A stretch of 64,000 nt of DNA, from contig CAZNUP010000002.1 in the NCBI GenBank assembly GCA_964576435.1, positions 42,112-106,111 of the forward strand. Direction: 5' to 3'. The translations under genes and the position numbers were made by a program. Position 1 is the first letter of the stretch, and each line of letters starts with the position of its first letter. This document shows positions 17,301 through 57,411 of this stretch, in pieces. The notes under the pieces were generated by a model. That model was given only the letters and a program-made list of their open reading frames with translations. It searched no databases and had not been told where the DNA came from. Origin of the DNA: an uncultured Gammaproteobacteria bacterium. Lineage in GTDB: Bacteria > Patescibacteriota > Microgenomatia > JAMCZE01.

Positions 17301-20300
17301 ATCCGACTGCAAAATTAGCTTTTGGAGCAGCAACGACGGCGGCGGGGGGAATTGATTTTGGAGGAGATGTGAGTTTGTATCGTTCAGCTGCCGATATATT
17401 AAAGACCGGAGATACATTTTCAATTAGATCTACGATTGGAATCACTGCAACTGGTCCAGCTCTTATTGTCGGCGGCGACGGATTGTCAGATGGTGTCGGA
17501 AATGTTGGCATTAACAAAGGAAGTATTGAGTATTACAGTAGTGGTTATGGACTTAACCTTGGTAGGCCGAATATTGGACCGATTGAATCTATAATTAGCC
17601 GTTCAACTGATGGTTCAACTGGTTACATTGATATCGGAAATAATACTGGTTGGACCGCAACAACACTGCAAGCTTCTGGTGGCAACGTTGGAATCGGCAC
17701 GACCGTGCCCATGGCAACACTGGATGTCCGAAGAAGCAATGGCACAATTGCGACGGCATCAATTTCCGGAGCAACGAGCTTTGCAGGCCTGGTTGTTGAT
17801 AATTCTGGGGTGGGAGATTTGTTTACAGCTTCTTCATCTGGCCTTACAAGATTTGTAATTAATAATGTTGGAGATGTGTTGCCTGGGACTGATGACGCTC
17901 AAGATCTGGGATCCAACGCACTCAGGTGGAGAGATTTGTATCTCGGATCAGACACGTTGCATATTGGCACGTCAACCTCAGATGAATATACGTTAAGCTA
18001 TAACACTGCATCAAACTATCTTGGGTTTAATGTCAATGGCAGTGGGAATTCGGAAGTGGTTTTTGATGCAAATGGGAATGTTGGAATTGGCAGCATCACA
18101 CCTGGATCAAAACTTGATGTTGCCGGAAGTATATCGATGTCTGGGTCACAAACGTTGACGTCAACAGGGACACTTGGAATTGGAACAGCCAATCAAACAG
18201 CCCTCACACTCGGTCGACCAGGAGCACCAACTGTGATTGATGGGTCGACGATCACAATTAATGGAGCACTTATTAATGGAGGAGGAAGTGCAACAATTTC
18301 AGGGACATTGGGGCTTGGTGGAGATGCTTCGTTCTCAGCAAAACTGACATTGGACTCAACAACACCTCAGATTAATGCAACAAACAACAGACCGCTGCAA
18401 CTTGGATTTATGAATACAGGGTCGGTTCAGTTTATGAATGCTTCTAATTACGTTGATGCAAACAACAATCTTTATATTAATGGTGTATTAATTTCTGGAT
18501 CCGCAGTCCAGGGTCATTGGCAGAGGAATAGTGGGGCTGTGGCACCAACTAATATCACTGACTCGCTGCTTGTTGGTGGGACGTCAACAGCGTCTGCTAA
18601 GTTCCAAGTTTATGGTTTGTCTGCATTGAATCCAGTGGCGTCAATTTCGGGTTCAAGTTCCAAGGCAGCACTTATTGTGGATAATACAGTCGGTGATTTA
18701 TTTGCTGCGAGTTCATCAGGATTGTCAAGGTTTGTCATTAATCAAAATGGCAACGTCGGAATTGGAACGACAAATCCCGCAGCACTTTTTGCAGCTGGGC
18801 AGTCGAATCAGTTTAGAGTTAATTCAGCTGGAACCGCATATATAACAAATGCAGCAGGGTCTATATCGTTAGCATCCTATATCGATGATGAGTGGGGAAC
18901 TTTTATTACGACTATTGGTGGAAGTGGGCAAAATTGGAAAATTTCTCCTAATCCAGGAAATAGAACAGCGATTGCATATAGAAATTTCCAGATCGCAGAT
19001 TCGTATAATCCATTCCAGTTTACTTTTAGAACAACGGTGGAGGATGGCAGCGGTGCAAATAACTTAACATTGTCAAGCTATTTCGAACCGTGGCAAACAA
19101 ATCGAGGTAATATGGCGGCATTATATGTTCCATACACTGTTGACGCAGCTGCCTCGCAAAATGGCATTGTTAGAGGGATTTATGTTGACTCAACTGAAAC
19201 CAGCCTGAACGGGTTTACAAATAATTTGATTGATCTACGCGTTGGTGGGGTGCCAAAGTTTGTTGTTGGAGCATCTGGCACTTCGACTACGGCCACGGTG
19301 TCTGGAACAACCAGTTCTGCAGCACTTGTGGTTGATAACTCGGGAGTTGGGGATGTGTTTAGTGCCAGCGCGGCTGGGGTGTCGAGGTTTGTTGTTACAA
19401 GTGGTGGAAATATTGGAATTGGCACCAACATCCCTGGATATAAACTGCAAGTTGCAAGTGGGCAAATTGCTGTTGCTGATGGGTCTGCTGGAACTCCTTC
19501 ATATAGTTTCTTTAATGATCCTGACAATGGCATGTTTAGACCTGGACCAAACACAATTGGCTTAAGTGCTGGGGGATCACAGGTTTTTTATGGAACGTTG
19601 GGGGGATCAGTGGTTTCAGGCTATATGGTTGGGGATGCAAGCCCGCTAACCCTTGGAAACAATAATGATTGGGGAGTGGGTGAGCAAATGCAGTTTGATT
19701 ATGCTGATGATAGCACTGTGGTTTCTCGAATTGGCTCGAATCAACATGCATCGGGAGATTATAGTTTGGATTTTTACACTACAACTGATGGTGGGTCAAG
19801 TTTGCCAGCGAGACTGCGAATTGGCCATGATGGAAACATTGGCATAAACACAACTGCACCTCTGTCACTATTGGATGTTCGAGGAATAAGTGGAACGAAT
19901 GCTTATTCAGGCATATCCTCGGTGGCAACAGTTTCTGGAAAAACATCGTTTGCAGCAATGGTTGTTGACAACTCAGGAGTAGGAGACCTGTTTACTGCCT
20001 CATCATCAGGCCTGTCTAGGTTTGTGATCTCACAAAATGGGAATATTGGGATTGGGACAACAGTTCCTGATGCTAAGGTTACAATTCTTGGAGGAAATGA
20101 CATTAAATTTACCGGAGTGTCTGCTCAAAATCAGGCATCGTTCATTGGTAGTAATGCCACGGATGATTTCAGTATTTTGGCTGGAATTGGGAACGGCAAG
20201 ACATTGACCATTGGAGCAAACGGCAGTTTGACTTCATTGAATAGAATAATTTTGTCGTCCACGGCGCTGCAAATTTTGCCTGGAAACACCAATGTTGGTA

Positions 20301-37664: not shown

Positions 37665-37671
37665 GTTTTTG

Positions 37672-37743
37672 TCGGGGTGCAGGGAATTGAACCCTGTGTC
37701 TCACGGTCCCGAACCGTGCGTGTTACCGATGCACCACACCCCG
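37672..37743 (-). tRNA. tRNA-Pro (anticodon CGG)
   Basis: Manual cloverleaf: acceptor CGGGGUG/CACCCCG with C1-G72 and A73 (typical of bacterial tRNA-Pro), anticodon arm CACGG-UUCGGGA-CCGUG, T-arm CAGGG-UUCAAUU-CCCUG. No encoded CCA. Confidence 0.7.
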
Positions 37744-37792
37744 AATAATTTTTTCCATTTTACTGTATTTACTGATAAAATTGGAATGTTTA

Positions 37793-37864
37793 GCCCTCGT
37801 AGCTCAACGGATAGAGCAATCCCGTCCTAAGGGAAAGATAACAGTTCAATTCTGTTCGAGGGTA
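37793..37864 (+). tRNA. tRNA-Arg (anticodon CCU)
   Basis: Manual cloverleaf: acceptor GCCCUCG/CGAGGGU, D-arm GCUC-AACGGAUA-GAGC, anticodon loop GUCCUAA, T-arm AACAG-UUCAAUU-CUGUU, discriminator A. Confidence 0.7.
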
Positions 37865-37868
37865 CTTA

Positions 37869-38516
37869 ATGAATAGGTCAGAATATATCAAAGTCTTTAC
37901 ACTCCGAGTCATCGGAAATTTTTTGTTGCTTTCAGCTTGTGCTGGGGTGTTTTTGACTTTTGCTCCTGCTATTCAAGCGGAAGCAAAGTTTAGATATGAC
38001 GAAATTTTGGGAGTTAAATATGTGGTATCTGATGACAAAGAGCAGGGAAGTTTTGGAAATATTTATCAAGGACTTGAACCAAAATCAAGAGATTTTGGTG
38101 TTGTGATAACTCGAATTGGTGCAAATGCTAATGTGATTCCTAATGTGGATCCCGGAAACGAAAGGGAATATATGGAAGCTTTGCAAGAAGGGGTGGCTCA
38201 CGCAGCAGGAAGCGTTATGCCAGGTGAAAAAGGTAACTCAGTACTGTTTGCTCATTCAGTGGGAAATTTTTGGGAAGTCAATCAGTGGAACGCAGTATTT
38301 TATTTACTTAAGGAACTCGAACCAGGGGACACAATAGATGTGTTTTATAAAGATAAGAGATATGTTTATGAAGTTTATGACAAAACAATTGTTGACCCTG
38401 ATCAGGTAGAATTTTTGAGACCAGAAGCTGATTTTCAGAAACTTACTTTAGAAACATGCTGGCCTCCAGGAACAACACTCAAGAGGCTGTTAGTTTTTGC
38501 AAAACTTAAGGACTAG
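37869..38516 (+). CDS. Sortase family transpeptidase
   Basis: N-terminal TM anchor, a TLxTC active-site motif (LTLETCWPP), a downstream Arg (LKRLLVF) and an upstream His (LFAHS). Confidence 0.6.
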   Translation: MNRSEYIKVFTLRVIGNFLLLSACAGVFLTFAPAIQAEAKFRYDEILGVKYVVSDDKEQGSFGNIYQGLEPKSRDFGVVITRIGANANVIPNVDPGNEREYMEALQEGVAHAAGSVMPGEKGNSVLFAHSVGNFWEVNQWNAVFYLLKELEPGDTIDVFYKDKRYVYEVYDKTIVDPDQVEFLRPEADFQKLTLETCWPPGTTLKRLLVFAKLKD

Positions 38517-43549: not shown

Positions 43550-43978
43550 TTAAATAAGCAGAGTGAAGGGGAGAATGCCGTAATAGAATTGAGAGTAGTC
43601 GAAGCTGGCTATTTGGGCAATTTGTTTTTTATCTGAAATTGAATTAACAAGTGCTTGCTCAAAAGTAATTGTTTGGGCAGAACTAGCATTTGCGAGAACC
43701 AATTTTAATGCATTCTTGGTTTCTGCTTCTTCGGGATAGAGAACATCAATGTTTCCAAGAAAAATTGTTCTTATAAAATCTTGAGCTGTACTGAAACCGA
43801 CATTTTTTTGAAGTTCCTCGTGGGTGCTTATAATTTCTGGAAGTGAAGTGAAGAGGTGCATACCTTCTTGGGCAAAGTATCTAAAGAAGGCTTCTGATTG
43901 AGCATGTCTTGGATTACTTCTGTCTATGAAGGCGTAAAAGACGGAACTAGTTACAAAAACTTTTTTACTTCTTGTCAT
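43550..43978 (-). CDS. Hypothetical protein (142 aa), possible PIN-like toxin partner of the upstream HTH_17 gene
   Basis: Size and position (4-nt overlap with the HTH gene) fit a toxin-antitoxin layout. The N-terminal KVFVTSSVF lacks the usual first PIN Asp, so PIN is uncertain. Confidence 0.4.
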   Translation of the reverse strand: MTRSKKVFVTSSVFYAFIDRSNPRHAQSEAFFRYFAQEGMHLFTSLPEIISTHEELQKNVGFSTAQDFIRTIFLGNIDVLYPEEAETKNALKLVLANASSAQTITFEQALVNSISDKKQIAQIASFDYSQFYYGILPFTLLI

Positions 43979-44265
43979 ATTGCTAAGCTCATACCAGAAC
44001 CGTTAAGTTTCCAAAACGGATCGTTAAAGGAAAATGGTTTTTCTGTTTGGGATTTGTTTTTTAGTGGATTGAAGTCTTTTGCGGAATATTCTTTTTGAAA
44101 CTTTAGAAAATCTTCTTCCTTAACACGTACTGCGCCACCAATTTTTACGGCAGAAAGTTTTTTTTCGCGCAAGTAACGCCTCACAGTTAGTGGGTGGACT
44201 TTTAAAATGAAAGCAATTTGTTTGACTGAAAAAAAGTTCTCCATATAGTATGCAAAAGTATACAT
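43975..44265 (-). CDS. Excisionase-family HTH (HTH_17) DNA-binding protein
   Basis: SVKQIAFILKVHPLTVRRYLREKKLSAVKIGGAVRVKEEDFLKF matches the HTH_17 pattern. Confidence 0.55.
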   Translation of the reverse strand: MYTFAYYMENFFSVKQIAFILKVHPLTVRRYLREKKLSAVKIGGAVRVKEEDFLKFQKEYSAKDFNPLKNKSQTEKPFSFNDPFWKLNGSGMSLAI

Positions 44266-44377
44266 CTATATATAAAAGTATGCAAGTCTTGGAAACATTT
44301 GACCCTTATATTTAGGGGTGCTCTAATAAAAACAGTTATTTTTTGATAGTTATTTTTTTGAAGGAGGTGACTCACAA

Positions 44378-44524
44378 ATGTTGTCAGGAATTGGCACACC
44401 CGAACTAGTAGTTGTCGGTATAGTTTTATTAGTTCTCTTTGGAGGTACAAAACTCCCAGAACTCGCAAGAGGTATTGGAGAAACTTTTAAGGAGTTTCGT
44501 AAGGCTGCTGGTGACACAGTTTAA
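44378..44524 (+). CDS. tatA: Sec-independent translocase protein TatA/E (48 aa)
   Basis: Not in the ORF track because it is under 60 aa. There is a strong SD (AAGGAGGTGA) 8 nt upstream. The sequence MLSGIGTPELVVVGIVLLVLFGGTKLPELARGIGETFKEFRKAAG is a canonical TatA. Confidence 0.7.
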   Translation: MLSGIGTPELVVVGIVLLVLFGGTKLPELARGIGETFKEFRKAAGDTV

Positions 44525-44528
44525 ACAT

Positions 44529-46043
44529 ATGGAAAGATCTGCAAAATTTGCCAAAATAGCATTGTTAGCAGTTCTACTAAACGGGGCAGCCTTGGTGTTC
44601 CCTAAGGACACTTGGGCTGCTGATCGTTTAGATTTTCAAGTTGTGAGTCAAGTTTTAGACACGACGTGGAATTTTTCTGACAGGAGCCTAACAACATTTG
44701 GAAACCTTATTGTGAACCCTCAGGAGCCACCTGTCGTGGCACTTCTTCGACCAAAAGCACCAAAGCCTTCAACAATGGCAGTAGTTCTTGAAACCAAGCC
44801 TGAAGCTTCTACCGAAACTATTCCTACCTTAGATAGTAAGATTCTTCAAACTGAAGCAGTTGCTAAAGAACTTTTTGTTTCAACATCTTATGCAAAAAGT
44901 GAAGCAGGACTTTTGGGACTTAAATGGACAGATTATTCTGGACAAGACGCGGCTTCTAAATTTTATGAACTTCAAAAGAAGTTTGGTCAGGAAACAGATT
45001 CTTCCACAAGTGATTCAATTTTTGGACGCGCAAGCTATTTGAGTGGGTCATGGAATTGGAGTTCTACTACTTTAATAGCAGATAGAATGAAAACCATTGG
45101 CAAAATCTTGAATGATCCAGCGGGACTAACTTATGAGAATGTTCAAACGCTTAGCTCTTTGTTTAATGAACTAGATAGTTTAGTTGGGGACACCAGTGAT
45201 CCATCTGAAAAAGCTACACTTCATGGACAATTATCGCAAACCAAAAATTTAGCTTCCTTACTTTCTCAGCAGACTAGTGATTTAGGGATGCTTCTTTCTA
45301 AGTGGGATAGCTATTCACAGGGAGACAAAGAGCAAAAACTTAATGATATAGCTTTGGGAGTTAAGTCTATAAACCAAATTCCTGGACTTGATGATGTGTT
45401 GTCCGCAACACCATCAGGATCAGATAAAGATCTCAAGAATAAAAGTTATGCAGTACTTGGGGTTGCTAATGCAAATAAACAACTTTTGACAGATAAACCA
45501 GGACAACCTCTTAATAGTAGTTGGCTAGAACTCGGGAGTGTTGTCTTTAAAAACCTGATTTTTAATCCATCTAATACAAACACTCAAGAAATGACGGTTG
45601 ATTACTATTTGCCTCCAGAAGTAGTTAAACAGGAAGATGTTATTGAGATTGATCCAAGTCTGGTTGTTCTTTTTGATTCATCAAAAAAACAGTATCATGT
45701 GACAGGGAAGTTTGTTCTTAATCCACAAGAATCGAAGATTGTTTACGTCCGGGTAAATGATCTTTGGATAATTGACCAAAAAGAGATTTCTAAACTTTCA
45801 GAAGAGGCTAGTGAAGCTTATAAACCATTTTCTAAAGTAGCATTTTTACCATACTTTTCTGAAGGAACTGAAATAAAGAGACAGATTGACGAATCCTTAG
45901 ATAAGGCAATGAAATTTGCTAAAGAATCTGAAGGTTCACCTGAAGAAGAAATAAAATCATATAGACTTGCAAACGATGAGATTAGTAAAGCGTCTAATCT
46001 AATTGAGAAATTACAAGAAAAGGGGAAGATAATTCCATTTTAA
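44529..46043 (+). CDS. Secreted hypothetical protein (505 aa)
   Basis: The ATG at 44529 gives MERSAKFAKIALLAVLLNGAALVFPKDTWAADR, a signal peptide with an AxA site. The ORF track's longer version would read through tatA. Confidence 0.55.
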   Translation: MERSAKFAKIALLAVLLNGAALVFPKDTWAADRLDFQVVSQVLDTTWNFSDRSLTTFGNLIVNPQEPPVVALLRPKAPKPSTMAVVLETKPEASTETIPTLDSKILQTEAVAKELFVSTSYAKSEAGLLGLKWTDYSGQDAASKFYELQKKFGQETDSSTSDSIFGRASYLSGSWNWSSTTLIADRMKTIGKILNDPAGLTYENVQTLSSLFNELDSLVGDTSDPSEKATLHGQLSQTKNLASLLSQQTSDLGMLLSKWDSYSQGDKEQKLNDIALGVKSINQIPGLDDVLSATPSGSDKDLKNKSYAVLGVANANKQLLTDKPGQPLNSSWLELGSVVFKNLIFNPSNTNTQEMTVDYYLPPEVVKQEDVIEIDPSLVVLFDSSKKQYHVTGKFVLNPQESKIVYVRVNDLWIIDQKEISKLSEEASEAYKPFSKVAFLPYFSEGTEIKRQIDESLDKAMKFAKESEGSPEEEIKSYRLANDEISKASNLIEKLQEKGKIIPF

Positions 46044-46063
46044 AATAGATCTATATTTTTAGA

Positions 46064-46231
46064 CTATTTTTTATCTTCGTCGTCTTTAATTTGACCGCCT
46101 ATTCCTTCTTTGATGTTTTTAATAGCTTCGCCTAATCCTTTTGCTAGTTCAGGAAGTTTTTTGCCTCCAAAAAGAAGTAGCAAGACTACTGCGACTACGA
46201 TGATTTCAGTTGTTCCAATTTTGTTAAGCAT
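46064..46231 (-). CDS. tatA: Sec-independent translocase protein TatA (55 aa)
   Basis: Not in the ORF track. The sequence is MLNKIGTTEIIVVAVVLLLLFGGKKLPELAKGLGEAIKNIKEGIGG.... Confidence 0.65.
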   Translation of the reverse strand: MLNKIGTTEIIVVAVVLLLLFGGKKLPELAKGLGEAIKNIKEGIGGQIKDDEDKK

Positions 46232-46247
46232 TATTCTTCACCTTCCT

Positions 46248-46973
46248 TCACTTAGATTTAAAAACAAATCTATTTAATATTAAGGTCAATTCGAACAGGA
46301 ATACAAGTGGCAGAAGAAGAAGGGCGTCTGACAAAAGGTCGTTTAAGGGGAGAAGAACTACAAAAATTAAAGCAATAAAGTAAATGATTGCTCTTTGTTT
46401 TGATAGAAACTTGTGAGAAATTACCTTAAATCTGAGAAGGAGGGCAAGAATGATGGGGAACTGGAAGGCGACTCCTAAAAGAGTTGATGTTAGAAGCGTT
46501 TGAGAAAGAAATTGACTAATGTCCAAAAAATTTCCCACACCTAATCCGGTTGTTTGGACATAGAAAAGTTCAACTGTGTAGCGCATGATCAGGATTCCAT
46601 AGGTAAACCCAATCAAGAAAAGGACCAAGCTAACTGGTAGGAGAATTAAAAGTACCCTAAATTCTTTGGGTTTTAGAGCTGGCTTTAGAAAAGCTAGTAA
46701 CTGGAACATTAAAACTGGGAAAACTACCACAAATCCGACCAGAAGACTGGAATTAATTGCTAGGCCTATGAACTGAAATGGGGAAGTGAACACTAAGTTG
46801 ACGCCTTTAAACTCGAAAATACTTAGAACAAAGCTAACAATTTTTTCGTAATAGATAAAACCGATTATTCCTGCTATTAAAAACAGAGAAACTACAAAAA
46901 GAAGCCGCTTTCTAATCTCAATGACGAACGGAAGAAATCTACTGGTGTTGTCTAAAGCTAAATCTTCGAGCAT
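46248..46973 (-). CDS. tatC: Sec-independent translocase protein TatC
   Basis: A 241-aa protein with 6 TM segments in the TatC pattern (N-terminal ...RKRLLFVVSLFLIAGIIGF...). Confidence 0.75.
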   Translation of the reverse strand: MLEDLALDNTSRFLPFVIEIRKRLLFVVSLFLIAGIIGFIYYEKIVSFVLSIFEFKGVNLVFTSPFQFIGLAINSSLLVGFVVVFPVLMFQLLAFLKPALKPKEFRVLLILLPVSLVLFLIGFTYGILIMRYTVELFYVQTTGLGVGNFLDISQFLSQTLLTSTLLGVAFQFPIILALLLRFKVISHKFLSKQRAIIYFIALIFVVLLPLNDLLSDALLLLPLVFLFELTLILNRFVFKSK

Positions 46974-47122
46974 TATTTGTCGTCTTTAGCACCTTTTCTA
47001 AATTCTTTGATGGAATCTCCGAGTCCTTTAAAGAATTCGGGAATTTTCTTTGAACCAAAAAGAAGGATGACAACTGCGGCGATAATTATAATCTCTGTCA
47101 AACCAATATTGAGGCCAAACAT
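46973..47122 (-). CDS. tatA: Sec-independent translocase protein TatA (49 aa)
   Basis: Not in the ORF track. The sequence is [49 protein letters not shown]. Its stop overlaps the tatC start by 1 nt. Confidence 0.65.
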
Positions 47123-47344
47123 TTACGCCACCTCCTTCTCTTTTTCTGAAGTTGAGTCGGACGTAGTGGAATCATTTTCGTTTTCTAAGGCACTTGAAAA
47201 TTCTTTTTTGACCTTTTTAAGTTCTTTACCTGTTTCACCTAAACTTCTAGCCCATTCGGTCATTCTTTTCCCGCCAAAAATTACAAGAAGAACTACACCA
47301 ATGATTATTAATTCTGTTGTGCCAATATTATCTAAGAATGCCAT
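47123..47344 (-). CDS. TatA/TatB-family protein (73 aa, acidic C-terminal tail)
   Basis: MAFLDNIGTTELIIIGVVLLVIFGGKRMTEWARSLGETGKELKK... Its stop codon abuts the next tatA start. Confidence 0.6.
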   Translation of the reverse strand: MAFLDNIGTTELIIIGVVLLVIFGGKRMTEWARSLGETGKELKKVKKEFSSALENENDSTTSDSTSEKEKEVA

Positions 47345-47390
47345 ACAAAATTAATAATAGAAGTGAGTGTGTGAAAAATCAAGTAAGAGT

Positions 47391-47945
47391 TTAGTCAACC
47401 AGAGGGTCCATAGCAACTACATACCAAGCAATTCCGTCCCACATTTCTAGAGATTGGATTTCTGTATTAAAGCCAAGGGTGCCGACTTCTGGTTTTTTAG
47501 GTCTACCGTTTGTGTTCCAGGTGGCAATTCTTGGAAGACCAACCATCACTGACAATCCGCCACCAATTTCAATGTAGGTTGAGGAGTTTTTGGAAAGTTC
47601 TGGCTTGGCGTCGGGATTACTTGGCAGTCTGATATGACCTCCAAGAACAGTGCCTGATCCATCGTTTGCAAATGTTGCACCCAAAACACCCACACCAGTT
47701 GCTTGTTGGATGTCAGTTTCTGTAACTCCAACTCTTTTAAAGGAATCAGCACCATGAGCCGCAAGGGTTAGTTTAAATTTATTACTGCTTGTCCCATGAA
47801 TTAGGAGATTATTTGACCAAGTTCTGGCGTCAGTGCCATGGAAGATGATTGCCGACTTTGATTTAAAAGTGTCTGTCGCATGAAGAACGCCAGTGTCTCT
47901 GGATTTTATTGCGTCAGCGGTGTGAGTAATTAGAATGTTATCCAT
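47391..47945 (-). CDS. Hypothetical protein (184 aa) with N-terminal HxTD repeats and a C-terminal domain shared with the serine-rich repeat protein
   Basis: Repeats ITHTADA / VLHATDT / IFHGTDA / LIHGTSS / AAHGADS lie about 13 aa apart. The C-terminus RIATWNTNGRPKKPEVGTLGFNTEIQSLEMWDGIAWY aligns with [37 protein letters not shown] of the next gene. Confidence 0.55.
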   Translation of the reverse strand: MDNILITHTADAIKSRDTGVLHATDTFKSKSAIIFHGTDARTWSNNLLIHGTSSNKFKLTLAAHGADSFKRVGVTETDIQQATGVGVLGATFANDGSGTVLGGHIRLPSNPDAKPELSKNSSTYIEIGGGLSVMVGLPRIATWNTNGRPKKPEVGTLGFNTEIQSLEMWDGIAWYVVAMDPLVD

Positions 47946-47946
47946 A

Positions 47947-50900
47947 TTAATTTGAATTAGGATTTAAATTCATACGTAAAGTGTACCAGGATTGTCCACC
48001 CCAGAGTTCTAGATTTCCTGTATCTGTATTTAGACCTAGTGTTCCTGATTTTGGTTTCATTGGCCTCGTTGATGTTGTCCAGGTGGCCATTTTGGTTAGG
48101 CCAAGTAGGCCGGAACCTCTTGGGGTAACTTTACCCAGCATTGATGGTTGATACTTTGGAGCAGTTGGCCTATTAACCAACAGTTCTAACTCAGCTGGCG
48201 TTAAATTACCACCCCTTAAGAATGCATCAGTTGTGTTGGAGATTGTATATGAGGGGATTGACGATTCACTGGGACTGGCACTGCCAGTTGGGGAGAAGCT
48301 TAGTGAAATACTAATCGATTGGCTTATTGAACCTGTTGGACTTGCTGAAGCAGATTCAGATGATGATGGAGATGGGGAGAAGCTACTTGATGGTGAAGTA
48401 GATGAAGACTCCGAGAGTGATGAACTTTCAGAAATAGATGTTGAGAGTGAAGCTGATGGTGAAAGACTGGCACTTGGTGAGACTGAAGCAGATGTGCTAC
48501 TTGACTCTGAACCTGATAAAGATTCTGATGCACTTTCTGAAAGTGAGGACGATGGACTTTGGCTAGCACTTTGTGACAAAGAAGAACTTTGTGAGAGTGA
48601 TGAACTTTCAGAAAGAGAAGCGGATGGAGAAAGTGACGCCGAGGTACTTCCTGACGTGGAGCTACTTATAGAAGCTGAGGTGCTTTGGGAAACAGAAGAA
48701 GATTGTGAAATTGATGAGGACTCCGATAAACTACTTGACTGTGAGAGTGAAGATGATTCTGACAAACTAGCTGAAGGTGACAAGCTTGCACTTGGTGAAG
48801 TTGATGCAGAAATACTTGGAGAAATTGAAGAACTTATTGAAGCGGATGTACTTTCTGAAACAGAACTACTTGGAGAAAGTGAACTTGACTGGGAAATAGA
48901 AGCTGATGGTGATTGACTTGCTGATGGTGACAATGAGGATGATTCCGACAAACTTGCTGATGGGGAAATCGAGGCTGACGGAGAAAGAGACGACGATGTA
49001 CTTCTACTAGTTGAGGAACTTGTTGATGCAGAAATACTAGACGAGGTTGACGTGGATGGAGAAACTGATTGTGATTCTGACAAACTACTAGATGGTGAGA
49101 GTGATGAACTTGGTGACAAAGATGCTGATGGAGAAATAGAAGCACTGGGTGAGATTGATGCTGATGGAGATGTGGAAGCTGAAACACTAGCACTAGTTGA
49201 AGCTGAAACTGATGCGGAAGTACTTGCTGATGTTGAGGAACTTGGTGATAGGGATGCCGAACTACTTGCTGAAGCAGATCTTGATGCAGAGGATGAACTA
49301 CTTGCTGAAATTGAAGATGACGGGGAAAGACTTGCGCTTGGTGATATAGAAGATGATGGAGAAAGAGACGCTGATGGTGAAAGGGATGCTGATGGAGAAG
49401 TTGATGATGATGGTGAAAGAGATCTGGAAGCACTGGAACTTGTTGAAGATGAAACTGAAGCAGAAGTGCTTGCTGAAGTTGATGAGCTTGGCGAAATTGA
49501 GGCAGAAGGAGAAGTGGATGATGAAGGAGATAGAGATGACGAAGGTGAAAGGCTTGCACTTGGAGAAAGTGATGCTGACGGAGAAGTAGATGCCGATGGT
49601 GATAGGGAGCGCGATGCACTAGCTGATGTTGAAGCACTTTGTGAAGCCGATGTGCTTGCTGAAGTGGAACTACTTGGTGATTGCGATGCGGATGGTGAGA
49701 GTGATGCAGATGGAGAAGTTGATGATGATGGGGAAAGTGACGCAGATGGTGAGATTGATGCGCTTGGTGATGTTGATGAGCTTGGACTTTGAGATGCAGA
49801 CGCACTGGCACTAGTTGAGGCAGAGGTTGACGCTGAACTACTTGCTGAAACAGACGAACTTGGACTTTGAGAAGCAGATGGAGAAATGGATGATGAGGGT
49901 GAAACACTGGCGCTTGGTGAAAGCGATGCTGATGGTGAAACAGATGCCGATGGTGAGAGAGAGGAAGAAGCACTTGCGCTTGTTGAAGCTGAAACGGAGG
50001 CTGACGAACTTGCTGACACGGATGAACTTGGTGAGACTGAAGCTGACGGAGAAACAGATGATGAAGGTGATAATGACGAACTAGGTGATTGTGATGCTGA
50101 TGGGGAAAGGGATGCACTTGGTGACTGTGAGGCAGAAGGGGAAACTGATGCAGAGCTACTTGCTGATGTTGAAGATGAAACAGATGCAGAACTACTTGCG
50201 GAGGTTGATGATGAGGGTGAAATCGATGCCGATGGGGATAAACTAGAGCTTGGTGAAGTACTAGATGATGGACTTAATGAAGCTGATGGTGAAACTGACG
50301 CTGACGGGGAGACTGAGGCTGATGGTGAAAGAGAACTTGATGCACTAGCTGATGTCGACGCACTTGTTGATGCAGAACTACTGGCAGAAACGGAGGAACT
50401 TGGTGACTGAGAAGAAGAAGGTGAGACTGAAGCAGACGGAGATGTTGATGATGATGGGGAAAGTGATGCAGATGGTGAGATTGATGCACTTGGTGAAATT
50501 GAAGATGATGGCGAAAGGGAACTAGATGTACTGGCACTAGTTGAGGCAGAGGTTGACGCTGAACTACTTGCTGAAACAGACGAACTTGGACTTTGAGAAG
50601 CAGATGGAGAGGTGGAAGAACTTGGCGATGTTGAGGAGGATGGAGATAAACTTGCTGAAGGTGAAAGCGAAGCACTAGGAGAAGTGGATGCAGATGGTGA
50701 CAAAGATGATGATGCACTAGCTGATGTTGAAGCACTTACTGAAGCAGATGTACTTGCTGAAATAGAACTTGAGGGACTTAAACTTGCGGATGGTGAGACA
50801 CTCGAGCTTGGTGATAAAGATGCACTTGGTGACAAACTTGCTGATGGGGAGACACTTGAACTTGGAGATTGTGATGCTGATGCACTGGCACTAGTTGAAG

Positions 50901-51936
50901 CTGAAACTGAAGCTGAACTACTTGCTGAAACAGATGAACTTGGGCTTTGAGAAGCAGATGGGGAGATTGAAGCGGAAGGTGATGTTGAAGCAGATGGAGA
51001 AAGTGATGATGACGGTGACAAACTTGCAGATGGTGAAACAGAAGCTGAAGGTGAGAGTGAACTTGATGCACTGGCTGACATTGAGCTACTAGCTGATGCT
51101 GATGAACTTGCTGATGTTGAAGATGATGGACTTATACTCGCCGATGGTGATGTTGAAGCAGATGGAGAAAGACTTGATGATGGAGAAAGTGAAGCGGAAG
51201 GAGAAAGTGATGCGGAAGCTGATGCAGAAACTGATGATGATGCGGAAGCTGAACTACTTGCGGAGCTTGATGAACTTGGTGACTGCGATGCTGATGGAGA
51301 AGTAGATGACGAAGGTGAAGTTGACGCTGATGGTGAAAGACTGGAACTTGGTGATAACGATGCTGACGGTGAGACTGATGCTGATGGCGAAAGAGAACTT
51401 GATGCACTGGCACTAGTTGAAGCTGACACTGATGCGGAAGTACTTGCTGAAGTTGAAGATGAAGGGCTAGTACTTGCACTTGGTGAAAGACTGGAACTTG
51501 GCGATAGTGATGCTGAGGGTGATATTGATGCGCTTTGAGAAATAGAAGCGGATGGACTTTGAGAGGCTGACACACTTGAGGAAGTTGAAGCACTTACTGA
51601 AGCTGAGGCGCTTTGTGAGGCAGAGGCACTTGGAGAAAGTGATGCTGATGGACTAAGGGAAGCTGAAGTTGAAGCACTTGTTGATGCGGAGGTACTAGAA
51701 CTTGGACTTTGCGAGGCAGAGGTACTTGCTGATGTAGATGCTGATGCTGATTCTGATGGACTTAAGCTGGCACTGCTTGCTGAATAGACAGGATATGGTT
51801 GTCCTGGATAAGGTTGACCAAAATCTGTCGTACCAATACCAGAACCTCCTTGAGGAGATTGTTGTGGTGGGGTAGCATTTGGGTCGTCGTTACCTTGAGC
51901 GGGATATGGGTTACCAAAATAGTTAGAACCGAACAT
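47947..51936 (-). CDS. Serine-rich repeat protein (1329 aa), mucin/SRRP-like, with no signal peptide
   Basis: About 1,100 aa of SAS(T/V/L)S(A/P)S repeats (S[PATLVQ]S[AS]...). The N-terminus is [15 protein letters not shown]... with no hydrophobic segment. The unique C-terminal ~130 aa share a domain with the 47391-47945 protein. Confidence 0.7.
48120..51780 (-). repeat. Degenerate short-period coding repeat (6-12 nt periodicity) encoding the Ser-rich tract
   Basis: This low-complexity DNA produces spurious long ORFs in all other frames (D/E/G-rich on the plus strand, H/Q/L-rich on the minus strand). Confidence 0.8.
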
Positions 51937-52012
51937 AGGATTGAATTCCTTTTAAAAGGCATTGTATTGCCCATCAAATATTGTGCATCTTAAGAGGTGA
52001 AGTTACAAGAAG

Positions 52013-52570
52013 TTATTTTTTAATTAAGACTACTTGAATGTCCATTACAACATTTGTGTAATGCCTGAGTGCAAAGGCTTTGGCTTCTTCACTTCTCATT
52101 GCCCAATCTGGGGTGAAATCATATCCAAAAGAAAAATCAAAATCGCAATGTATTGGATAATGATCTAATTTGTTTTGTACTCTCCAATCTTTGTTGTAAT
52201 AGAGGAACGTGGCTTCGGAAATTACTCTTGTATGTGTGGGATCTTGCCAGGCGCGGACTGAGTTGTAATAGGGTGCACGAATTAAGGCTTTTGCCCCTGG
52301 CTTCATGATTCTATAAAGTTCCTCCATAAACTTTATGATGTCTTTTGTGTGCTCAATATAGTGACTGGAAAAAATTTCATCAACGCTATTGTCTGGAATT
52401 GGCCAGGGAAATTTCTCAAGGTCATAAACCATGTCAACTCCGTCTGACTTAGCAATATCGATGCCAAAGAAACCTGGGGCCTTGTTTTGCCCACAGCCAA
52501 TATCAAGCTTAAATGGTGAGGGAAAATTTAACGGGCTTTCTTTCTTTTTTGTTTTTATGTTTTTGGACAT
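52013..52570 (-). CDS. Class I SAM-dependent methyltransferase
   Basis: Motif I LDIGCGQNKAPG and motif II VDEIFSSHYIEH fit the Methyltransf_11/23-type fold. Confidence 0.65.
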   Translation of the reverse strand: MSKNIKTKKKESPLNFPSPFKLDIGCGQNKAPGFFGIDIAKSDGVDMVYDLEKFPWPIPDNSVDEIFSSHYIEHTKDIIKFMEELYRIMKPGAKALIRAPYYNSVRAWQDPTHTRVISEATFLYYNKDWRVQNKLDHYPIHCDFDFSFGYDFTPDWAMRSEEAKAFALRHYTNVVMDIQVVLIKK

Positions 52571-52582
52571 ATGCGAATTATA

Positions 52583-53299
52583 TTACCAGACTAAATCGTT
52601 TACTAGATCGTAGTTGCCAGCTTTAATTCTTGTATCGCAAGCAACTTTGTATCCAAGTTTTTGAATATTCTCGAAGAAAAAAAGATCAAGCATGTCATCT
52701 GGATTTTTGCCAGGGTGCCTTAAAAAAGGAGTTCTAAACCATGGTCTTGGAACTCTGGGGTCTCTGAAGATGTCCAATTTGAAAAGAGTGTAAGAGGTAG
52801 TTAAACCCAAGCATGGTTGGATGCCGTCAACAACAGAGGAAACGGTTTGAAATGATAAGGGAAAAGAATTTGGATGGCCAAAAATTTGTGGTTTACCTTC
52901 CTCTCCTTTTGACCAAATTAAACCGCCAACAACATCGTATTTGCCAATTGATTCAAAAAGACGAGGTAAGCCGTCCAAAGGTGGAAGGATGGTTTCTTCC
53001 AAAGTTAAAATATATTTAAAAGTACTAAGTCCGGGATTTGTTAGAATTTGTTCGATTGCAGCATTATAGGCAAAGTTTTTTTCAAGATTCATCATCATTA
53101 GGCGCATGAATTTTTGATTCATTTGGCTAATTTGATAGAGCCATCTTTCGGCAACTTTTGCGTGAATCGCTCCTGAGTTTGGGATGATGCAAATTGTTCC
53201 TAAGTCTTTATAGCTTTGGGAAGTATAAAGTCTATTTATAGAGGAATTTAAATCACTATTGTGTTTGCCTTGAAAATCGGGATAAGTCAGATCTACCAT
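52583..53299 (-). CDS. Putative GT-A-like glycosyltransferase (paralogue of the next gene)
   Basis: TICIIPNSG near the N-terminus; conserved DIFRDPRVPRPWF and KVACDTRIK..YD shared with the 53293 gene. Confidence 0.35.
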   Translation of the reverse strand: MVDLTYPDFQGKHNSDLNSSINRLYTSQSYKDLGTICIIPNSGAIHAKVAERWLYQISQMNQKFMRLMMMNLEKNFAYNAAIEQILTNPGLSTFKYILTLEETILPPLDGLPRLFESIGKYDVVGGLIWSKGEEGKPQIFGHPNSFPLSFQTVSSVVDGIQPCLGLTTSYTLFKLDIFRDPRVPRPWFRTPFLRHPGKNPDDMLDLFFFENIQKLGYKVACDTRIKAGNYDLVNDLVW

Positions 53300-54015
53300 A
53301 CAATGTCGTTTTCCGCATCATAGTGGCCGACTTTTATCCTTGTGTCACAAGCCACTTTATAATTAAGTTTTTTGATGTTTTCATAAAAATAGAGGTCTTG
53401 GCTATAGCCTCTAATGCCAACGTTTGGAGCAAATTCCTGGAGTGTTTTAAACCATGGTCTTGGAACTCTGGGGTCTCTGAAGATATCTTTTTTGAAAAGA
53501 TTGAATCCCATTCCTAGTCCATTGCATTCTTGAATGGTTTCCGGAATTGGAACTTGGGGAACAAAATTAATTTCCTCTCTTTTATGGTCGCCATAAATCA
53601 TTGGTTGGCCGGCGTCGCCTTTTGTCCAATATAGACCTCCCACAACATCAAATTTTTCCATACCTTCATAGAGCTTTAAGAGTCCGTCGGGAGGAGGCAT
53701 ATTGTCTTCTTCTAAAGTGAGGATATATTTCCAGGAACGAAGGATAGGATTTTCTAAAATTTGAGTGATTGCTTGAGTGTAGGCGGCGCCAACTTCCATG
53801 CCGATAACAAACATACGCATAAATTTTTGATTCATTGGCACCATTAAACCCCACCAGCTTTGCAAAACTTTGGCTGAAATCATGCCTCTCGTTGGGATAA
53901 TGCAGATGGTTGACAGATCTCTATAAAATTCATTGGTTGATAGTTTTTCAGATAAATCAACTGAAATTTGCGCAGGAGGGTCAAAATGGTCAATCACAAT
54001 TTGTGGTTTCGTCAT
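53293..54015 (-). CDS. Putative GT-A-like glycosyltransferase (paralogue of the previous gene)
   Basis: TICIIPTRG, ILTLEEDN (a DxD-like motif), DIFRDPRVPRPWF; overlaps its neighbour by 7 nt. Confidence 0.35.
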   Translation of the reverse strand: MTKPQIVIDHFDPPAQISVDLSEKLSTNEFYRDLSTICIIPTRGMISAKVLQSWWGLMVPMNQKFMRMFVIGMEVGAAYTQAITQILENPILRSWKYILTLEEDNMPPPDGLLKLYEGMEKFDVVGGLYWTKGDAGQPMIYGDHKREEINFVPQVPIPETIQECNGLGMGFNLFKKDIFRDPRVPRPWFKTLQEFAPNVGIRGYSQDLYFYENIKKLNYKVACDTRIKVGHYDAENDIVW

Positions 54016-54028
54016 AGCAGCGAGTTTA

Positions 54029-55171
54029 TCATGTGGAAACGAAAGTTACCGCTGGTAAAATGGTCGCTGTTGAGCCAGCACCACCTGTTGTTCCTAGTTC
54101 GCTTATGGTAATTGCAGTTGGAATGGCGGTTCCACCAAAACCTGCTCTTCCTGTGTTTGTTAGAAAGCCAACAATGTTTCTGCCCCACCAATTTGTGAAG
54201 GCAGAGTTGCTGGCACTCCAAGCCGTGGAGGCAACACCAATCGGCATCAACGAACCAGAGACCATATTTACCGGATTAATGGGTTGACCAATTATGCCTG
54301 CATTACTTAGGCCAAAGGTTGACCTGGTGTCGCCATTGCTTCTTAATTGCAGTAAGCCAATCCAATAAACACCACCTGTCAAGCTCGTCATATCGGCACC
54401 AAATTGTAAGCCAATAATTCTTGTTCCAGAGATGAATGATGACATAAGTCCTGTTGTTGTTAAGCCTGTGCTGCCATTAGTATTGAATGGTCCATACCCG
54501 TAGCCACTGGTCATGGTTGTCGTTGGAAAATTCCAAGTTACTGAGCGGCTATTTAAAGTTTGAGAAATGCCAAAAGAGTTACTGGTTATTAAACTTAGTG
54601 AGTTGTCATTTCTACTATAGAGTCCAAAATAGGAAAAGTGAGTGTGGCTAGCTGCTCCAATGGCGCTGGTTGCAAGGGACAATGAATTGCCAATTAGAAT
54701 TTGATTAAAGTTAAGGTTCGGGGGAATTGTTACTGGGAAAACAAAAAGCGAATTAGTTCCCGTGACTGAGGTGTAATTTGCAGCAATTGTTTGTAATCCA
54801 GTTTGGCCAGCTCCGGCAATGTGGACTGGAGCCCAGTAGGTGAGAGGGGCACTGGCATCGGTCATGGTTTTTTCGGTGATGGTGGCAGCGATTTGAAAGC
54901 CAACTTGAAAAGATTGGGAAGAAGAGCTTTCTTGGGTTCTTAAAATTGTAAAAGTGTCGACATCAATGTCTGTCACCCGGATAATTTCAGCATTGGTGGA
55001 AATTGGTTGGGTTCCCGATGGCCAGACAGTGGCATTAAAAGGAGGTGGGGGAAATTTTAATCCATCTCCAGCTTGCACTGTTAAAGTTGTTCCTGTCCCA
55101 GGATTTGTTGTGTCACCCTGGTTGGTTCCCCGAATTGTTGAATAGGCAAAGTTTCTATGTGCGTCAGCCAT
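54029..55171 (-). CDS. Tandem-paralogue hypothetical protein 3 of 3 (380 aa); candidate structural/glycan-acceptor protein
   Basis: Shares N-terminal ...FPPPPFNATVWPSGTQPISTNAEIIRVTD...DTFTILRTQE, a mid-region ...GYGYGPFNT... and C-terminal ATILPAVTFVST with the two upstream genes. It has no signal peptide or TM and is S/T/N/G-rich. Confidence 0.55.
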   Translation of the reverse strand: MADAHRNFAYSTIRGTNQGDTTNPGTGTTLTVQAGDGLKFPPPPFNATVWPSGTQPISTNAEIIRVTDIDVDTFTILRTQESSSSQSFQVGFQIAATITEKTMTDASAPLTYWAPVHIAGAGQTGLQTIAANYTSVTGTNSLFVFPVTIPPNLNFNQILIGNSLSLATSAIGAASHTHFSYFGLYSRNDNSLSLITSNSFGISQTLNSRSVTWNFPTTTMTSGYGYGPFNTNGSTGLTTTGLMSSFISGTRIIGLQFGADMTSLTGGVYWIGLLQLRSNGDTRSTFGLSNAGIIGQPINPVNMVSGSLMPIGVASTAWSASNSAFTNWWGRNIVGFLTNTGRAGFGGTAIPTAITISELGTTGGAGSTATILPAVTFVST

Positions 55172-55172
55172 C

Positions 55173-56291
55173 TTAAGTAGACATTACATTAGAATAAAAG
55201 GTAACAGTTGGCAAAATTGTGGCTGTTGAGTTGGCAGCTGAAGCACCAAGAGCTGATAAGTTAATGCTGTCTGGAACTGTGGTGCCACCAAAATTTCCAA
55301 GAGAAGTGGCAGTGACAAAAGCAACCATGTGTCGACCCCACCACTGGGTGCTGTTGCCAACATTTGTTCCGCCCCAAAGCGAAGCCACTGAACCTATGGG
55401 CAAAACACCGCTGACGCTGCCCGCAAGATGGGGAGGGTCAATTATTTGACCAATGACACCAGAGATAATTACTCCTGCTCCACTATTATTTGCTGTGCTT
55501 CTAAGTGACATGAGGCCAAGATAGTATATGCCGTTTGTTAGATGCATTTCACTGCCAAATTGCATCCCCACAGCTCTCGTTCCTGAGATGTAGTTAACAA
55601 TTTGAGCGGTGTTGCTCATTGCTAAAGTGTCATAACCATAACCGCTGGTGTTGGTTGTTGTTGGGAAACTCCAAGTTCGTGAGAGGCCGTTCATGCTTTC
55701 AGCGATTGAAAAAGACCCTGTGGCCATTAAAGACAATGCAGTGCTTGCGTTCATAGTATAGAGGCCAAAATAAGAATAGTATGAATTGCTGCCTTGGGCG
55801 TTACTTGTTGTATATGACATTGAGACTGGAAGAATGGCTTGGTTAAAATAGATATTGTTGTTGACAGTTACTGGAAAAACAAAAAGTGAGCCAGATGATG
55901 ATTGTCCTGAAGCAGAAGCTAAGGTTTGAAGTGAGGTAGCTGCAGCTGAAGAGTAAATAAATGGGGACCAAGTGGCAAATGAATTTTCAGCTTCGACTAA
56001 GGTTTGTGCTGTAATTGCTGCAGAAATTTGGTCACCAACAATAATGTTTTTGGCGTTAGTGTCCTCTTGCGCTCTTTCTACAGTAAATGTGTCAGTAGAT
56101 TTGGATACAACGAGCACTATTTCTGCATTTTCTGATGTGGGTTGTTCGCCTGTGGGCCAAATGGTAGCGTAAAAAGGAGTGTCTGGGAAAAGACTGCCAG
56201 TCCCTGCTGAAACTACTAATGAAGTGCCAGTATTGTTGGGTGTTGGGGCGGTGTCAATTGCTGATATGGCAAAATTATTGAAATTACTCAT
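55173..56291 (-). CDS. Tandem-paralogue hypothetical protein 2 of 3 (372 aa)
   Basis: ...SLFPDTPFYATIWPTGEQPTSENAEIVLVV...TFTVERAQE...; C-terminal TILPTVTFYSNVMST. Confidence 0.55.
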   Translation of the reverse strand: MSNFNNFAISAIDTAPTPNNTGTSLVVSAGTGSLFPDTPFYATIWPTGEQPTSENAEIVLVVSKSTDTFTVERAQEDTNAKNIIVGDQISAAITAQTLVEAENSFATWSPFIYSSAAATSLQTLASASGQSSSGSLFVFPVTVNNNIYFNQAILPVSMSYTTSNAQGSNSYYSYFGLYTMNASTALSLMATGSFSIAESMNGLSRTWSFPTTTNTSGYGYDTLAMSNTAQIVNYISGTRAVGMQFGSEMHLTNGIYYLGLMSLRSTANNSGAGVIISGVIGQIIDPPHLAGSVSGVLPIGSVASLWGGTNVGNSTQWWGRHMVAFVTATSLGNFGGTTVPDSINLSALGASAANSTATILPTVTFYSNVMST

Positions 56292-56295
56292 AATT

Positions 56296-57411
56296 TCATG
56301 TAGAAACCAAGCTTACTATTGGTAGGACCGTAGCAATAGTGTTTGCAGTTTGTAAGTTAGCAAGTTCGATTACGTTTGGTAACCTGGTGCCGCCAAATCC
56401 TTGCTGAGCGGTATTGGTGGCAAAGCCCATTATAAACCGACCATTCCAACCTGAGATTCGATTGTTGCTTTGAGCAAATTCTGCGGCTGCTTGACCTATT
56501 GGGTTCATGCCGCTAACTGAACCGGCCATGTTAATGGGATTTATTACTTGGCCGATAATTCCAGCATGGGAAAAACCTAGTGAAGAAACACTTCCGGCAG
56601 TACTTCTGTAGGTGAGAATTGCAAGCCAATAAATACCGCCTGTAATAGATAACTCAGTGTTAAATTGTAATTGCACTTTTCGGGCTCCTGATATAAGTGA
56701 AACCATTTGAGCTGTTGTGGAAATGTTACCAACTCCGGGAAAAGAAGTGCCATAAGCGTAGCCTGTTGTGGCGGTGCTTGTTGGATAGCTCCATGTTAGG
56801 CTGACACTGTTTAGAGTTTCAAGAATACTAAACGAATTAGAAGTGATGAGTTCCATAGTATTTGATGACATTGAATAGAGTCCAAAATTGGAAAAATAGG
56901 TGTTACTGACTCCGGCACTATTGGTGGTCATATACGACTGTGATTGGGCTATAACTATCTGATTAAAGCGCATGGGGAAGGGGAGAGTCATCGGGAAAAT
57001 AAAAATGGAACCGGTTCCTGTTGTAGAGGAATTTGCGGCAAGAGTCTGAACTCCGGTGCCTGCAGAGGCAGCGATTGTTGGAGCCCAGCTATTTATGTAG
57101 TAGTTTTCTAAATCAGTAAAGGTTTTGGCTGTTAAAGCGGCGGCAATTTGGTAACCTGATTGAAGGTTGATGCTTGCAGAGCCTTCCTGCTGACGGGTTA
57201 TTGTAAAGTTGTCTGATGCAATTCCTGTGACTCTAACTATTTCGGCATTAGTGCTAGTTGGTTGTGTGCCGCTTGGCCAAACAGTGGCATTGAAAGGCGG
57301 GGTTGGGAAAAGTGATCCCTGGCCAGTTTGAACATCTAAAGAAGTGCCACCAGTTCCTGGGGAATTGGCAAGAGTGGAATATGCGAAATTTGCGAATTGA
57401 TCGATTGCCAT
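56296..57411 (-). CDS. Tandem-paralogue hypothetical protein 1 of 3 (371 aa)
   Basis: ...SLFPTPPFNATVWPSGTQPTSTNAEIVRVTG...NFTITRQQE...; C-terminal TVLPIVSLVST. Confidence 0.55.
   Translation of the reverse strand: MAIDQFANFAYSTLANSPGTGGTSLDVQTGQGSLFPTPPFNATVWPSGTQPTSTNAEIVRVTGIASDNFTITRQQEGSASINLQSGYQIAAALTAKTFTDLENYYINSWAPTIAASAGTGVQTLAANSSTTGTGSIFIFPMTLPFPMRFNQIVIAQSQSYMTTNSAGVSNTYFSNFGLYSMSSNTMELITSNSFSILETLNSVSLTWSYPTSTATTGYAYGTSFPGVGNISTTAQMVSLISGARKVQLQFNTELSITGGIYWLAILTYRSTAGSVSSLGFSHAGIIGQVINPINMAGSVSGMNPIGQAAAEFAQSNNRISGWNGRFIMGFATNTAQQGFGGTRLPNVIELANLQTANTIATVLPIVSLVST

Follow-up and report, generated by a model that had tools for sequence, protein, structure and literature searches.

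In Bacillus subtilis, each main TatA protein of the pathway for twin-arginine translocation (Tat) has its own TatC and its own substrate with a twin-arginine (RR) motif, as in the phoD-tatAd-tatCd genes. A further TatA paralogue of this species, TatAc, has an auxiliary role (PMC5777986), and Campylobacter jejuni and Vibrio likewise have two or three TatA-family proteins for each TatC (PMC4148689, PMC5777986). How TatA, TatB, and TatE divide their labour is still debated in this well-studied pathway. For the Microgenomatia, only a passing mention that they encode TatA and TatC was found in the searchable literature (PMC9166423). Here we analysed a 64-kb stretch (hereafter the window, meaning the whole stretch) of a Microgenomates chromosome (Patescibacteria/candidate phyla radiation, CPR), which holds four TatA-family genes and a single tatC at positions 44378-47344. 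The identical gene set (100% identity) was assembled independently in four sequencing runs. The data confirmed the locus as real; it is unusual only to a moderate degree and represents a variant of the known Tat system that is found across the lineage. Judged from its genes and their relatives, it probably encodes a canonical Tat translocase for folded proteins in this Microgenomates bacterium, composed of one TatC and four anciently diverged TatA paralogues.

Four TatA classes around a single TatC

A sequence-only reading of the window had placed four tatA/tatB-family genes and one tatC at this locus, and all five genes matched their Pfam families, TatA_B_E (PF02416, cut-off 21) or TatC (PF00902, cut-off 25.1). 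A hidden Markov model (HMM) scan of all window open reading frames (ORFs) of at least 30 amino acids (aa), in which the search for TatA used a model built from the four copies, showed that four TatA genes and one TatC are the complete set in the window. The cut-off of the TatA/TatE model TIGR01411 (53.9) was reached by three copies and missed by tatA4. The copy nearest to classical TatA was tatA3, which is 43% identical to E. coli TatA. As had been noted from the letters alone, three of the TatA ORFs are shorter than 60 aa (48, 55, and 49 aa). Each small TatA ORF was conserved at the amino-acid level in 80 other genomes (E values from 1e-15 to 1e-27), so they are real coding sequences; chance ORFs were ruled out by this conservation and by the family-model matches. 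The genes of the locus, its neighbours, and two promoter-like sites are given below, with the TatA classes (U2, U1, D1, and X-linked) defined by gene position.

44378-44524, plus strand: tatA1, X-linked class, 48 aa; PF02416 54.3 bits, TIGR01411 54.1; signature KLPELARG; heads a two-gene unit with X
44529-46043, plus strand: X, 504 aa; truncated member of a Microgenomates surface-protein family
46064-46231, minus strand: tatA2, D1 class, 55 aa; PF02416 55.5 bits, TIGR01411 54.9; directly 3' of tatC
46248-46973, minus strand: tatC, 241 aa; PF00902 123.1 bits
46973-47122, minus strand: tatA3, U1 class, 49 aa; PF02416 54.9 bits, TIGR01411 64.3; signature KKIPEFFKG
47123-47344, minus strand: tatA4, U2 class, 73 aa; PF02416 45.6 bits, TIGR01411 42.8 (below the cut-off); acidic Ser/Thr-rich tail; first gene of the tat operon
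47391-47945, minus strand: p184, 184 aa; N-terminally extended form of the 'mini' fibre-domain protein
47947-51936, minus strand: Ser-rich repeat protein, 1329 aa, 51% Ser; same C-terminal fibre domain as p184
44222-44249: promoter-like site TTGACT-16-TATAGT, 5' of tatA1
47354-47382, minus strand: promoter-like site TTGATT-17-TATTAT, in the 46-nucleotide (nt) gap between p184 and tatA4; consensus match only

The comparison set consisted of 80 species-representative loci around TatC relatives, which were scanned with the TatA HMM. The closest TatC relatives (50-68% identity) came from Levybacteria, Blackburnbacteria, Woesebacteria, and other Microgenomates/Patescibacteria bins. The copy-number check in relatives that the sequence-only reading had proposed showed that a lone tatC is as a rule accompanied by several tatA genes: in the loci that had 5 kb or more on both sides, four tatA genes were found in 17 loci, two in 12, three in 11, five to eight in 5, and a single one in 1. 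The same reading had called several TatA paralogues with one TatC unusual. This did not hold for the arrangement as such, which is the rule in the Microgenomates and common elsewhere with two or three copies per TatC; what did hold is that four conserved classes lie at the high end. The commonest full architecture was that of the window, in which a long and then a short tatA lie ahead of tatC, a further tatA lies behind it, and a large convergent gene comes next, headed by a tatA of its own. The tatA(U2)-tatA(U1)-tatC core was present in nearly all relatives. The layout of several TatA genes with one TatC is the ancestral norm in the Microgenomates, a lineage trait and not the oddity of a single genome.

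We compared the class of each TatA copy, defined by gene position alone, with the classes of its five nearest sequence neighbours from other loci. The positional class was recovered for 55 of 60 U2 copies, 52 of 69 U1 copies, 40 of 48 D1 copies, and 31 of 36 X-linked copies. The consensus sequences differed among the classes, and the operon position was conserved for each of them. The window carries one TatA of each class, each as expected from its position, the neighbour votes being three of five for U2 (tatA4), five of five for U1 (tatA3), four of five for D1 (tatA2), and four of five for the X-linked class (tatA1). The distinct class signatures persisted in genomes that share no more than 38-58% TatC identity with the window. 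Because the sequence classes match the positional classes, and because the paralogues of the window share only 43-58% identity in their core, the four TatA copies are ancient paralogues. Recent tandem duplication, which would have spoken against the sequence-only reading, is excluded, since the classes are orthologous across genomes and each window copy resembles the copies in the same position elsewhere more than it does the other three of the window. The D1 tatA and the X gene tended to occur together (both in 38 loci, neither in 22, and mismatched in 8).

The arrangement of the genes was also analysed. The Shine-Dalgarno sequence claimed for the plus-strand tatA1 was found again (AAGGAGGTG, 10 nt 5' of the start), and strong Shine-Dalgarno sequences precede three of the four TatA genes: that of tatA3 is likewise AAGGAGGTG and lies within the 3' end of tatA4, and that of tatA2 (GAAGGAAGGTGA) overlaps the tatC stop. 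None was found 5' of tatA4. The TAA of tatA4 directly abuts the ATG of tatA3 (TAAATG), and the tatA3 stop overlaps the tatC start (TAATG), so that tatA4 and tatA3, and likewise tatA3 and tatC, are translationally coupled. On the other strand, the tatA1 stop lies 4 nt 5' of the X start. The minus-strand tat genes follow 46 nt downstream of the p184 ORF in the same direction as p184 and the Ser-rich ORF, and co-transcription would be consistent with this layout. No terminators were predicted in 43900-52700, and no Rfam match to a regulatory RNA was found near the tat genes. The -10-like TATTAT in the gap between p184 and tatA4 ends 9 nt 5' of the tatA4 ATG, so that a putative promoter here would be near-leaderless; promoter-like sites in the region as a whole were no more frequent than in shuffled sequence. 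Among the relatives, a marine Patescibacteria genome carried eight tatA genes around one tatC (L008:4832-10841), with six upstream, one downstream, and one X-linked.

Hallmarks of Tat function and roles of the paralogues

Residues E19 and E104 of the window TatC are the counterparts of E. coli E15 and E103, the glutamates in the N-terminus and the first cytoplasmic loop by which TatC binds the twin-arginine motif. Both glutamates were invariant in 24 aligned Microgenomates TatC sequences, the window included, and also across E. coli TatC (locus L091) and eight Microgenomates sequences, with the window among them. As both of these signal-binding residues are retained in TatC, the system most likely carries out canonical twin-arginine transport. 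All four TatA copies showed the TatA-family architecture, in which one N-terminal transmembrane helix is followed by an FG hinge and then by an amphipathic helix, and all four have a Glu where E. coli TatB has Glu8. In TatB this residue ligates TatB to TatC, and Gln or His is usual there in TatA (PMC5777986).

Several results weigh against a canonical Tat translocase with divided TatA roles. The TatC score was below the cut-off of the NCBIfam equivalog model (TIGR00945, 109.7 versus 132.7). No TatA copy reached the TatB model (TIGR01410, 27.1-33.5 versus 56.5), the hinge is FG and not GP, and the longest copy has 73 aa compared with 171 aa for E. coli TatB. The earlier label 'tatA/tatB-family' was therefore borne out at the Pfam level only, as no copy is TatB by model score or hinge motif, and a TatB-like role of the U2 copy is guessed at from how long it is and where it lies. 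The ORFs of the 64-kb window included no twin-arginine substrate, and the proteins encoded in close linkage cannot be recognised as Tat cargo, the signal peptide of X being of the Sec type and the fibre proteins being signal-less. The twin-arginine search also covered the fetched related loci, and two textbook RR signal peptides found there within a few kb of tat speak for the canonical reading. One of them, TRRDFFK, is on a PD40-repeat protein (L061:6663-7874, plus strand) with a weak TAT_signal match (18.2 bits versus a cut-off of 22.7), and the other is ERRKFL (L045:10928-11833, minus strand).

The most economical reading is that the TatA component is sub-functionalised within a canonical Tat translocase. 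The locus is a composite of two conserved modules, a core operon and an accessory module. In the core operon, tatA(U2, long)-tatA(U1)-tatC, one paralogue, most likely U2, may stay with TatC in the signal-receptor complex in a TatB/TatE-like manner, and the other may polymerise, by which the membrane would be permeabilised for transport. The accessory module consists of tatA(D1) after tatC and the convergent tatA(X-linked)-X operon, and is inherited together with X. A whole class of bacteria in which four TatA classes are each conserved beside one TatC provides a natural experiment on the purpose of extra TatA proteins, in Microgenomates genomes of about 1 Mb that have few obvious cofactor-containing exported enzymes.

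Linked surface proteins and competing explanations

Protein X had been described as a secreted protein with an atypical n-region. It does begin with MERSAKFAKI, followed by a hydrophobic stretch and ..TWA/AD, and it has no RR. Homologues of X were found 44 times among the 80 loci (E values from 1e-26 to 1e-99). In the full-length members, typically of 770-1100 aa, the signal peptide is followed by a Cys-containing N-terminal domain, then by the conserved core of about 400 aa and a transmembrane hairpin, and last by a C-terminal SH3_3 domain. The window X keeps the signal peptide and the core of about 400 aa, and is without the Cys-containing domain, the transmembrane hairpin, and SH3_3; in comparison with an 822-aa homologue whose locus is laid out like that of the window (L089), it lacks about 115 residues on the N-terminal side and about 200 on the C-terminal side. 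X is a lineage-specific surface-protein family, with a window copy that is truncated at both ends. An X-linked tatA preceded the X gene in 35 of 44 loci, mostly with a gap of 1-9 nt. The signal peptide of X was of the Sec type family-wide, with RR in 2 of 42 sequences and very hydrophobic h-regions (mean hydropathy 1.9-3.6), which rules out X as a canonical Tat substrate. The AlphaFold2 model of X (mean predicted local distance difference test score, pLDDT, 63) combined a helical bundle with a beta-sandwich and additional helices, and gave no significant match in the PDB.

Loci of the X type have further characteristic genes. A gene resembling the PrsW family of intramembrane proteases (about 130 aa; e.g. 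L005:6726-7121, plus strand) followed the D1 tatA in 38 of 43 X-type loci, and is absent in the window. In 34 of 43 X-type loci, a signal-less protein family was encoded directly upstream of the first tatA (e.g. L005:3746-5053 and L014:4989-5501, both plus strand). Its members are either about 435 aa long with a right-handed beta-helix or about 170 aa long, share an N-terminal domain of about 100 aa, and have no N-terminal signal peptide; the family takes the place that is held by the fibre-domain pair in the other locus type. Beside the X-linked tatA of the window, an HTH_17 protein (96 aa) overlaps a 142-aa protein without Pfam match (43550-44265, minus strand). This pair, kept beside the X-linked tatA in four relatives (L017, L025, L026, and L054), looks like a toxin-antitoxin or regulator pair.

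The two genes preceding the tat operon in the window, those for p184 and the Ser-rich 1329-aa protein, share a C-terminal domain of about 55 aa, the fibre domain (E value 2.4e-24 for p184 and 5.2e-19 for the Ser-rich protein). Fibre-domain proteins were present in about 25 fetched loci, and nearly all of these showed a giant protein with 33-54% Ser, a mini protein of about 66 aa that is hardly more than the fibre domain, and then tatA-tatA-tatC. The gene adjoining the first tatA usually ended 20-140 nt 5' of it. The sequence-only reading had pointed out that the minus-strand tat genes are co-directional with the Ser-rich array, and this linkage proved to be conserved synteny in relatives. Besides TatC, no gene family was common to more than 8 of the 25 fibre loci (an apparent antisense family of the Ser-rich gene set aside). 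Because these remaining flanks are not conserved, the linkage of fibre genes to tat is not mere gene-order inertia. The linkage is frequent, not obligatory: in look-ups that started from the mini protein, four of six independent loci adjoined tatA-tatA-tatC, and two had no tat genes nearby. The Collierbacteria (locus L093) are a candidate for a lineage with fibre genes but no Tat. Fibre-type and X-type loci were almost mutually exclusive (20 versus 37, with both types in 1 and neither in 2), and the lineage of the window has features of both.

No N-terminal signal peptide or RR was found in the fibre proteins, that is, in the Ser-rich giants and in p184 and the mini proteins. The Ser-rich protein of the window has no N-terminal hydrophobic segment and no LPXTG, and it ends in the fibre domain. 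Pfam searches with seven giant Ser-rich homologues gave no domains. In the structure model of p184, only residues 120-180 or so were confident (pLDDT 81-97), and the structural matches of the fibre domain were the TSP3 tailspike of phage CBA120, the trimerisation domains of collagen XV/XVIII, and cyanophage fibre-like proteins. The sequence searches with p184 gave no match in the PDB, a sub-threshold match to DUF7360 only in Pfam, and PHROGs matches to families of unknown function. The core motif of the fibre domain is a widespread repeat module (1612 cluster representatives, with up to 17 copies per protein). This, and the two mini-protein loci without tat genes, weakened the fibre domain as a candidate for a Tat-specific targeting signal.

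Upstream of the pair of p184 and Ser-rich genes are a methyltransferase gene, two GT2 glycosyltransferase genes, an RmlD-like gene, and Methyltransf_24 genes. Three tandem paralogues of 371-380 aa without Pfam match or signal peptide (54029-57411, minus strand) sit between the glycosyltransferases and the Ser-rich gene; their shared N-terminal motif, ..PPFNATVWPSGTQP.S.NAEI.RVT....D.FTI.R.QE.., is one that occurs in phage fibre-like proteins. Two overlapping paralogues of 238 and 240 aa, also without Pfam match, lie at 52583-54015 (minus strand) beside a class I methyltransferase gene (52013-52570). Long ORFs with a high content of Asp, Glu, and Gly run antisense to the Ser-rich gene, in the window at 48233-50410 (plus strand) as well as in loci L001, L085, L087, and L089, and public gene calls for this contig or related ones take the antisense strand and miss the real Ser-rich gene (e.g. 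L085 3197-6208, minus strand). A sortase gene (PF04203, from the public calls) is located at 37869-38516 (plus strand), beside a divergent tRNA-Pro/tRNA-Arg pair (37671-37865).

The window also holds genes for the ATP synthase beta subunit, LeuRS, ArgRS, ComEA/ComEC, MreB, and two tRNAs. A prophage origin was ruled out by these surrounding housekeeping genes and by the lineage-wide synteny. Elsewhere in the window, a single ORF of 6464 aa extends over 2369-21763 (plus strand), with a GC content of 0.42-0.49 compared with about 0.38 in the rest of the window.

The sequence-only reading had proposed substrate-specialised translocases. In such a case, the TatA paralogues and the single TatC would serve adjacent cargo, the X-linked and D1 copies for X, and the U2 and U1 copies for the fibre proteins. 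The tightness and conservation of the tatA-X unit and the co-occurrence of D1 with X fit this idea, as does the position of the fibre pair, which precedes tat in about 25 species-level genomes despite unconserved flanks. The B. subtilis phoD-tatAd-tatCd genes are a precedent, although the single TatC found here is unlike it. In C. jejuni, TatA1 and TatA2 show paralogue-dependent substrate differences (PMC4148689). However, the candidate cargo gave the proposal no support, since the signal peptides of X are Sec-type and the Ser-rich and mini proteins have neither a signal peptide nor RR, and two of the six look-ups place the fibre pair away from tat. Despite the very tight conserved linkage, substrate specialisation is unproven, and we consider it unlikely. 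We assign still less probability to the idea that the expanded Tat system of the Microgenomates is dedicated to the export of surface fibres that are folded, oligomeric, possibly glycosylated in the cytoplasm, and without N-terminal signal peptides (Ser-rich here, beta-helix in other lineages). If this idea were true, Tat would correspond in function to the accessory Sec system that serves serine-rich adhesins, with targeting through a non-canonical signal or through hitchhiking on a partner, and there would be an explanation for the 2-8 tatA genes that genomes of about 1 Mb retain, welded to fibre genes. The linkage of tat to X and to signal-less fibre proteins points to an unrecognised part of cell-surface building in episymbionts, whether Tat is the exporter or not.

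Two further explanations concern the TatA copies themselves. If some paralogues had left Tat, the X-linked TatA and perhaps D1 would be small membrane partners of X, acting in its insertion, anchoring, or regulation together with the PrsW-like protease. Full-length X does have a transmembrane hairpin and SH3_3 and is not a Tat-type substrate, and in relatives the tatA(D1)-prsW-like pair is convergent with X-tatA in 38 of 43 loci. However, the X-linked and D1 copies keep the TatA hallmarks (the transmembrane Glu, an FGG hinge, the KKLPE motif, and the amphipathic helix) and score at or above the TatA/TatE cut-off, and the window X has lost its membrane segments, yet both of these tatA genes are intact; the chance that they have left Tat seems slim. 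The other explanation is gene dosage, by which a large excess of TatA over TatC would be met in small genomes by several interchangeable gene copies. Many TatA copies are needed per translocation site (PMC10092561). The variation of the tatA number from 1 to 8 among relatives, and the resemblance of all copies to TatA/TatE more than to TatB, are consistent with dosage, but interchangeable copies do not account for four signature classes that were not homogenised over the TatC divergence given above and whose positions are conserved, and dosage is about as improbable as the departure of paralogues from Tat.

Comparison with known systems

With phage fibre and tailspike proteins (CBA120 TSP3, cyanophage fibre-like and 'sericin-like' proteins, and DUF7360), the common element is the domain of about 55 aa, which matches in predicted structure and weakly in sequence. 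In the window, by contrast, it is present as a single C-terminal copy on chromosomal Ser-rich cellular proteins, without phage gene context, whereas elsewhere it is often repeated.

The islands for serine-rich repeat (SRR) proteins of the accessory Sec system (GspB, Fap1, SraP) likewise combine a Ser-rich giant, glycosyltransferases and methyltransferases, and export genes in a co-directional array. Glycosylation of SRR proteins takes place in the cytoplasm, ahead of their export (PMC7948813, PMC6973325). The differences are that here the export genes are those of Tat instead of SecA2/SecY2, that the long N-terminal signal peptide and LPXTG are missing, and that the C-terminus is phage-fibre-like; no Sec-family match was found among the subset of window ORFs scanned. 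The resemblance is striking and is only an analogy, and glycosylation of the Ser-rich protein is hypothetical.

The Gram-positive TatAC systems (B. subtilis TatAd-TatCd/phoD, TatAy-TatCy, and TatAc) are similar in having no recognisable TatB and a tat gene beside that for a secreted protein. In contrast to PhoD-TatAd-TatCd, the locus described here has a single TatC, and the adjoining X has a Sec-type signal peptide with a strongly hydrophobic h-region and no RR. Neither feature of a substrate-dedicated Tat unit, a separate TatC for each TatA or an adjacent RR substrate, was found in the window.

The system of E. coli, TatABC and TatE, shares with this locus a single TatC with several TatA-family paralogues (three in E. 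coli), mostly encoded in one operon ahead of tatC, as well as the signal-binding glutamates of TatC and the TatA-family architecture. The GP hinge, the long tail, and the model score of E. coli TatB are missing here, yet the TatB-type Glu is present in all four copies. In the locus described here, one copy follows tatC and one is in a separate convergent operon, and in place of the three paralogues of E. coli the Microgenomates have four conserved classes, with up to 8 genes in relatives.

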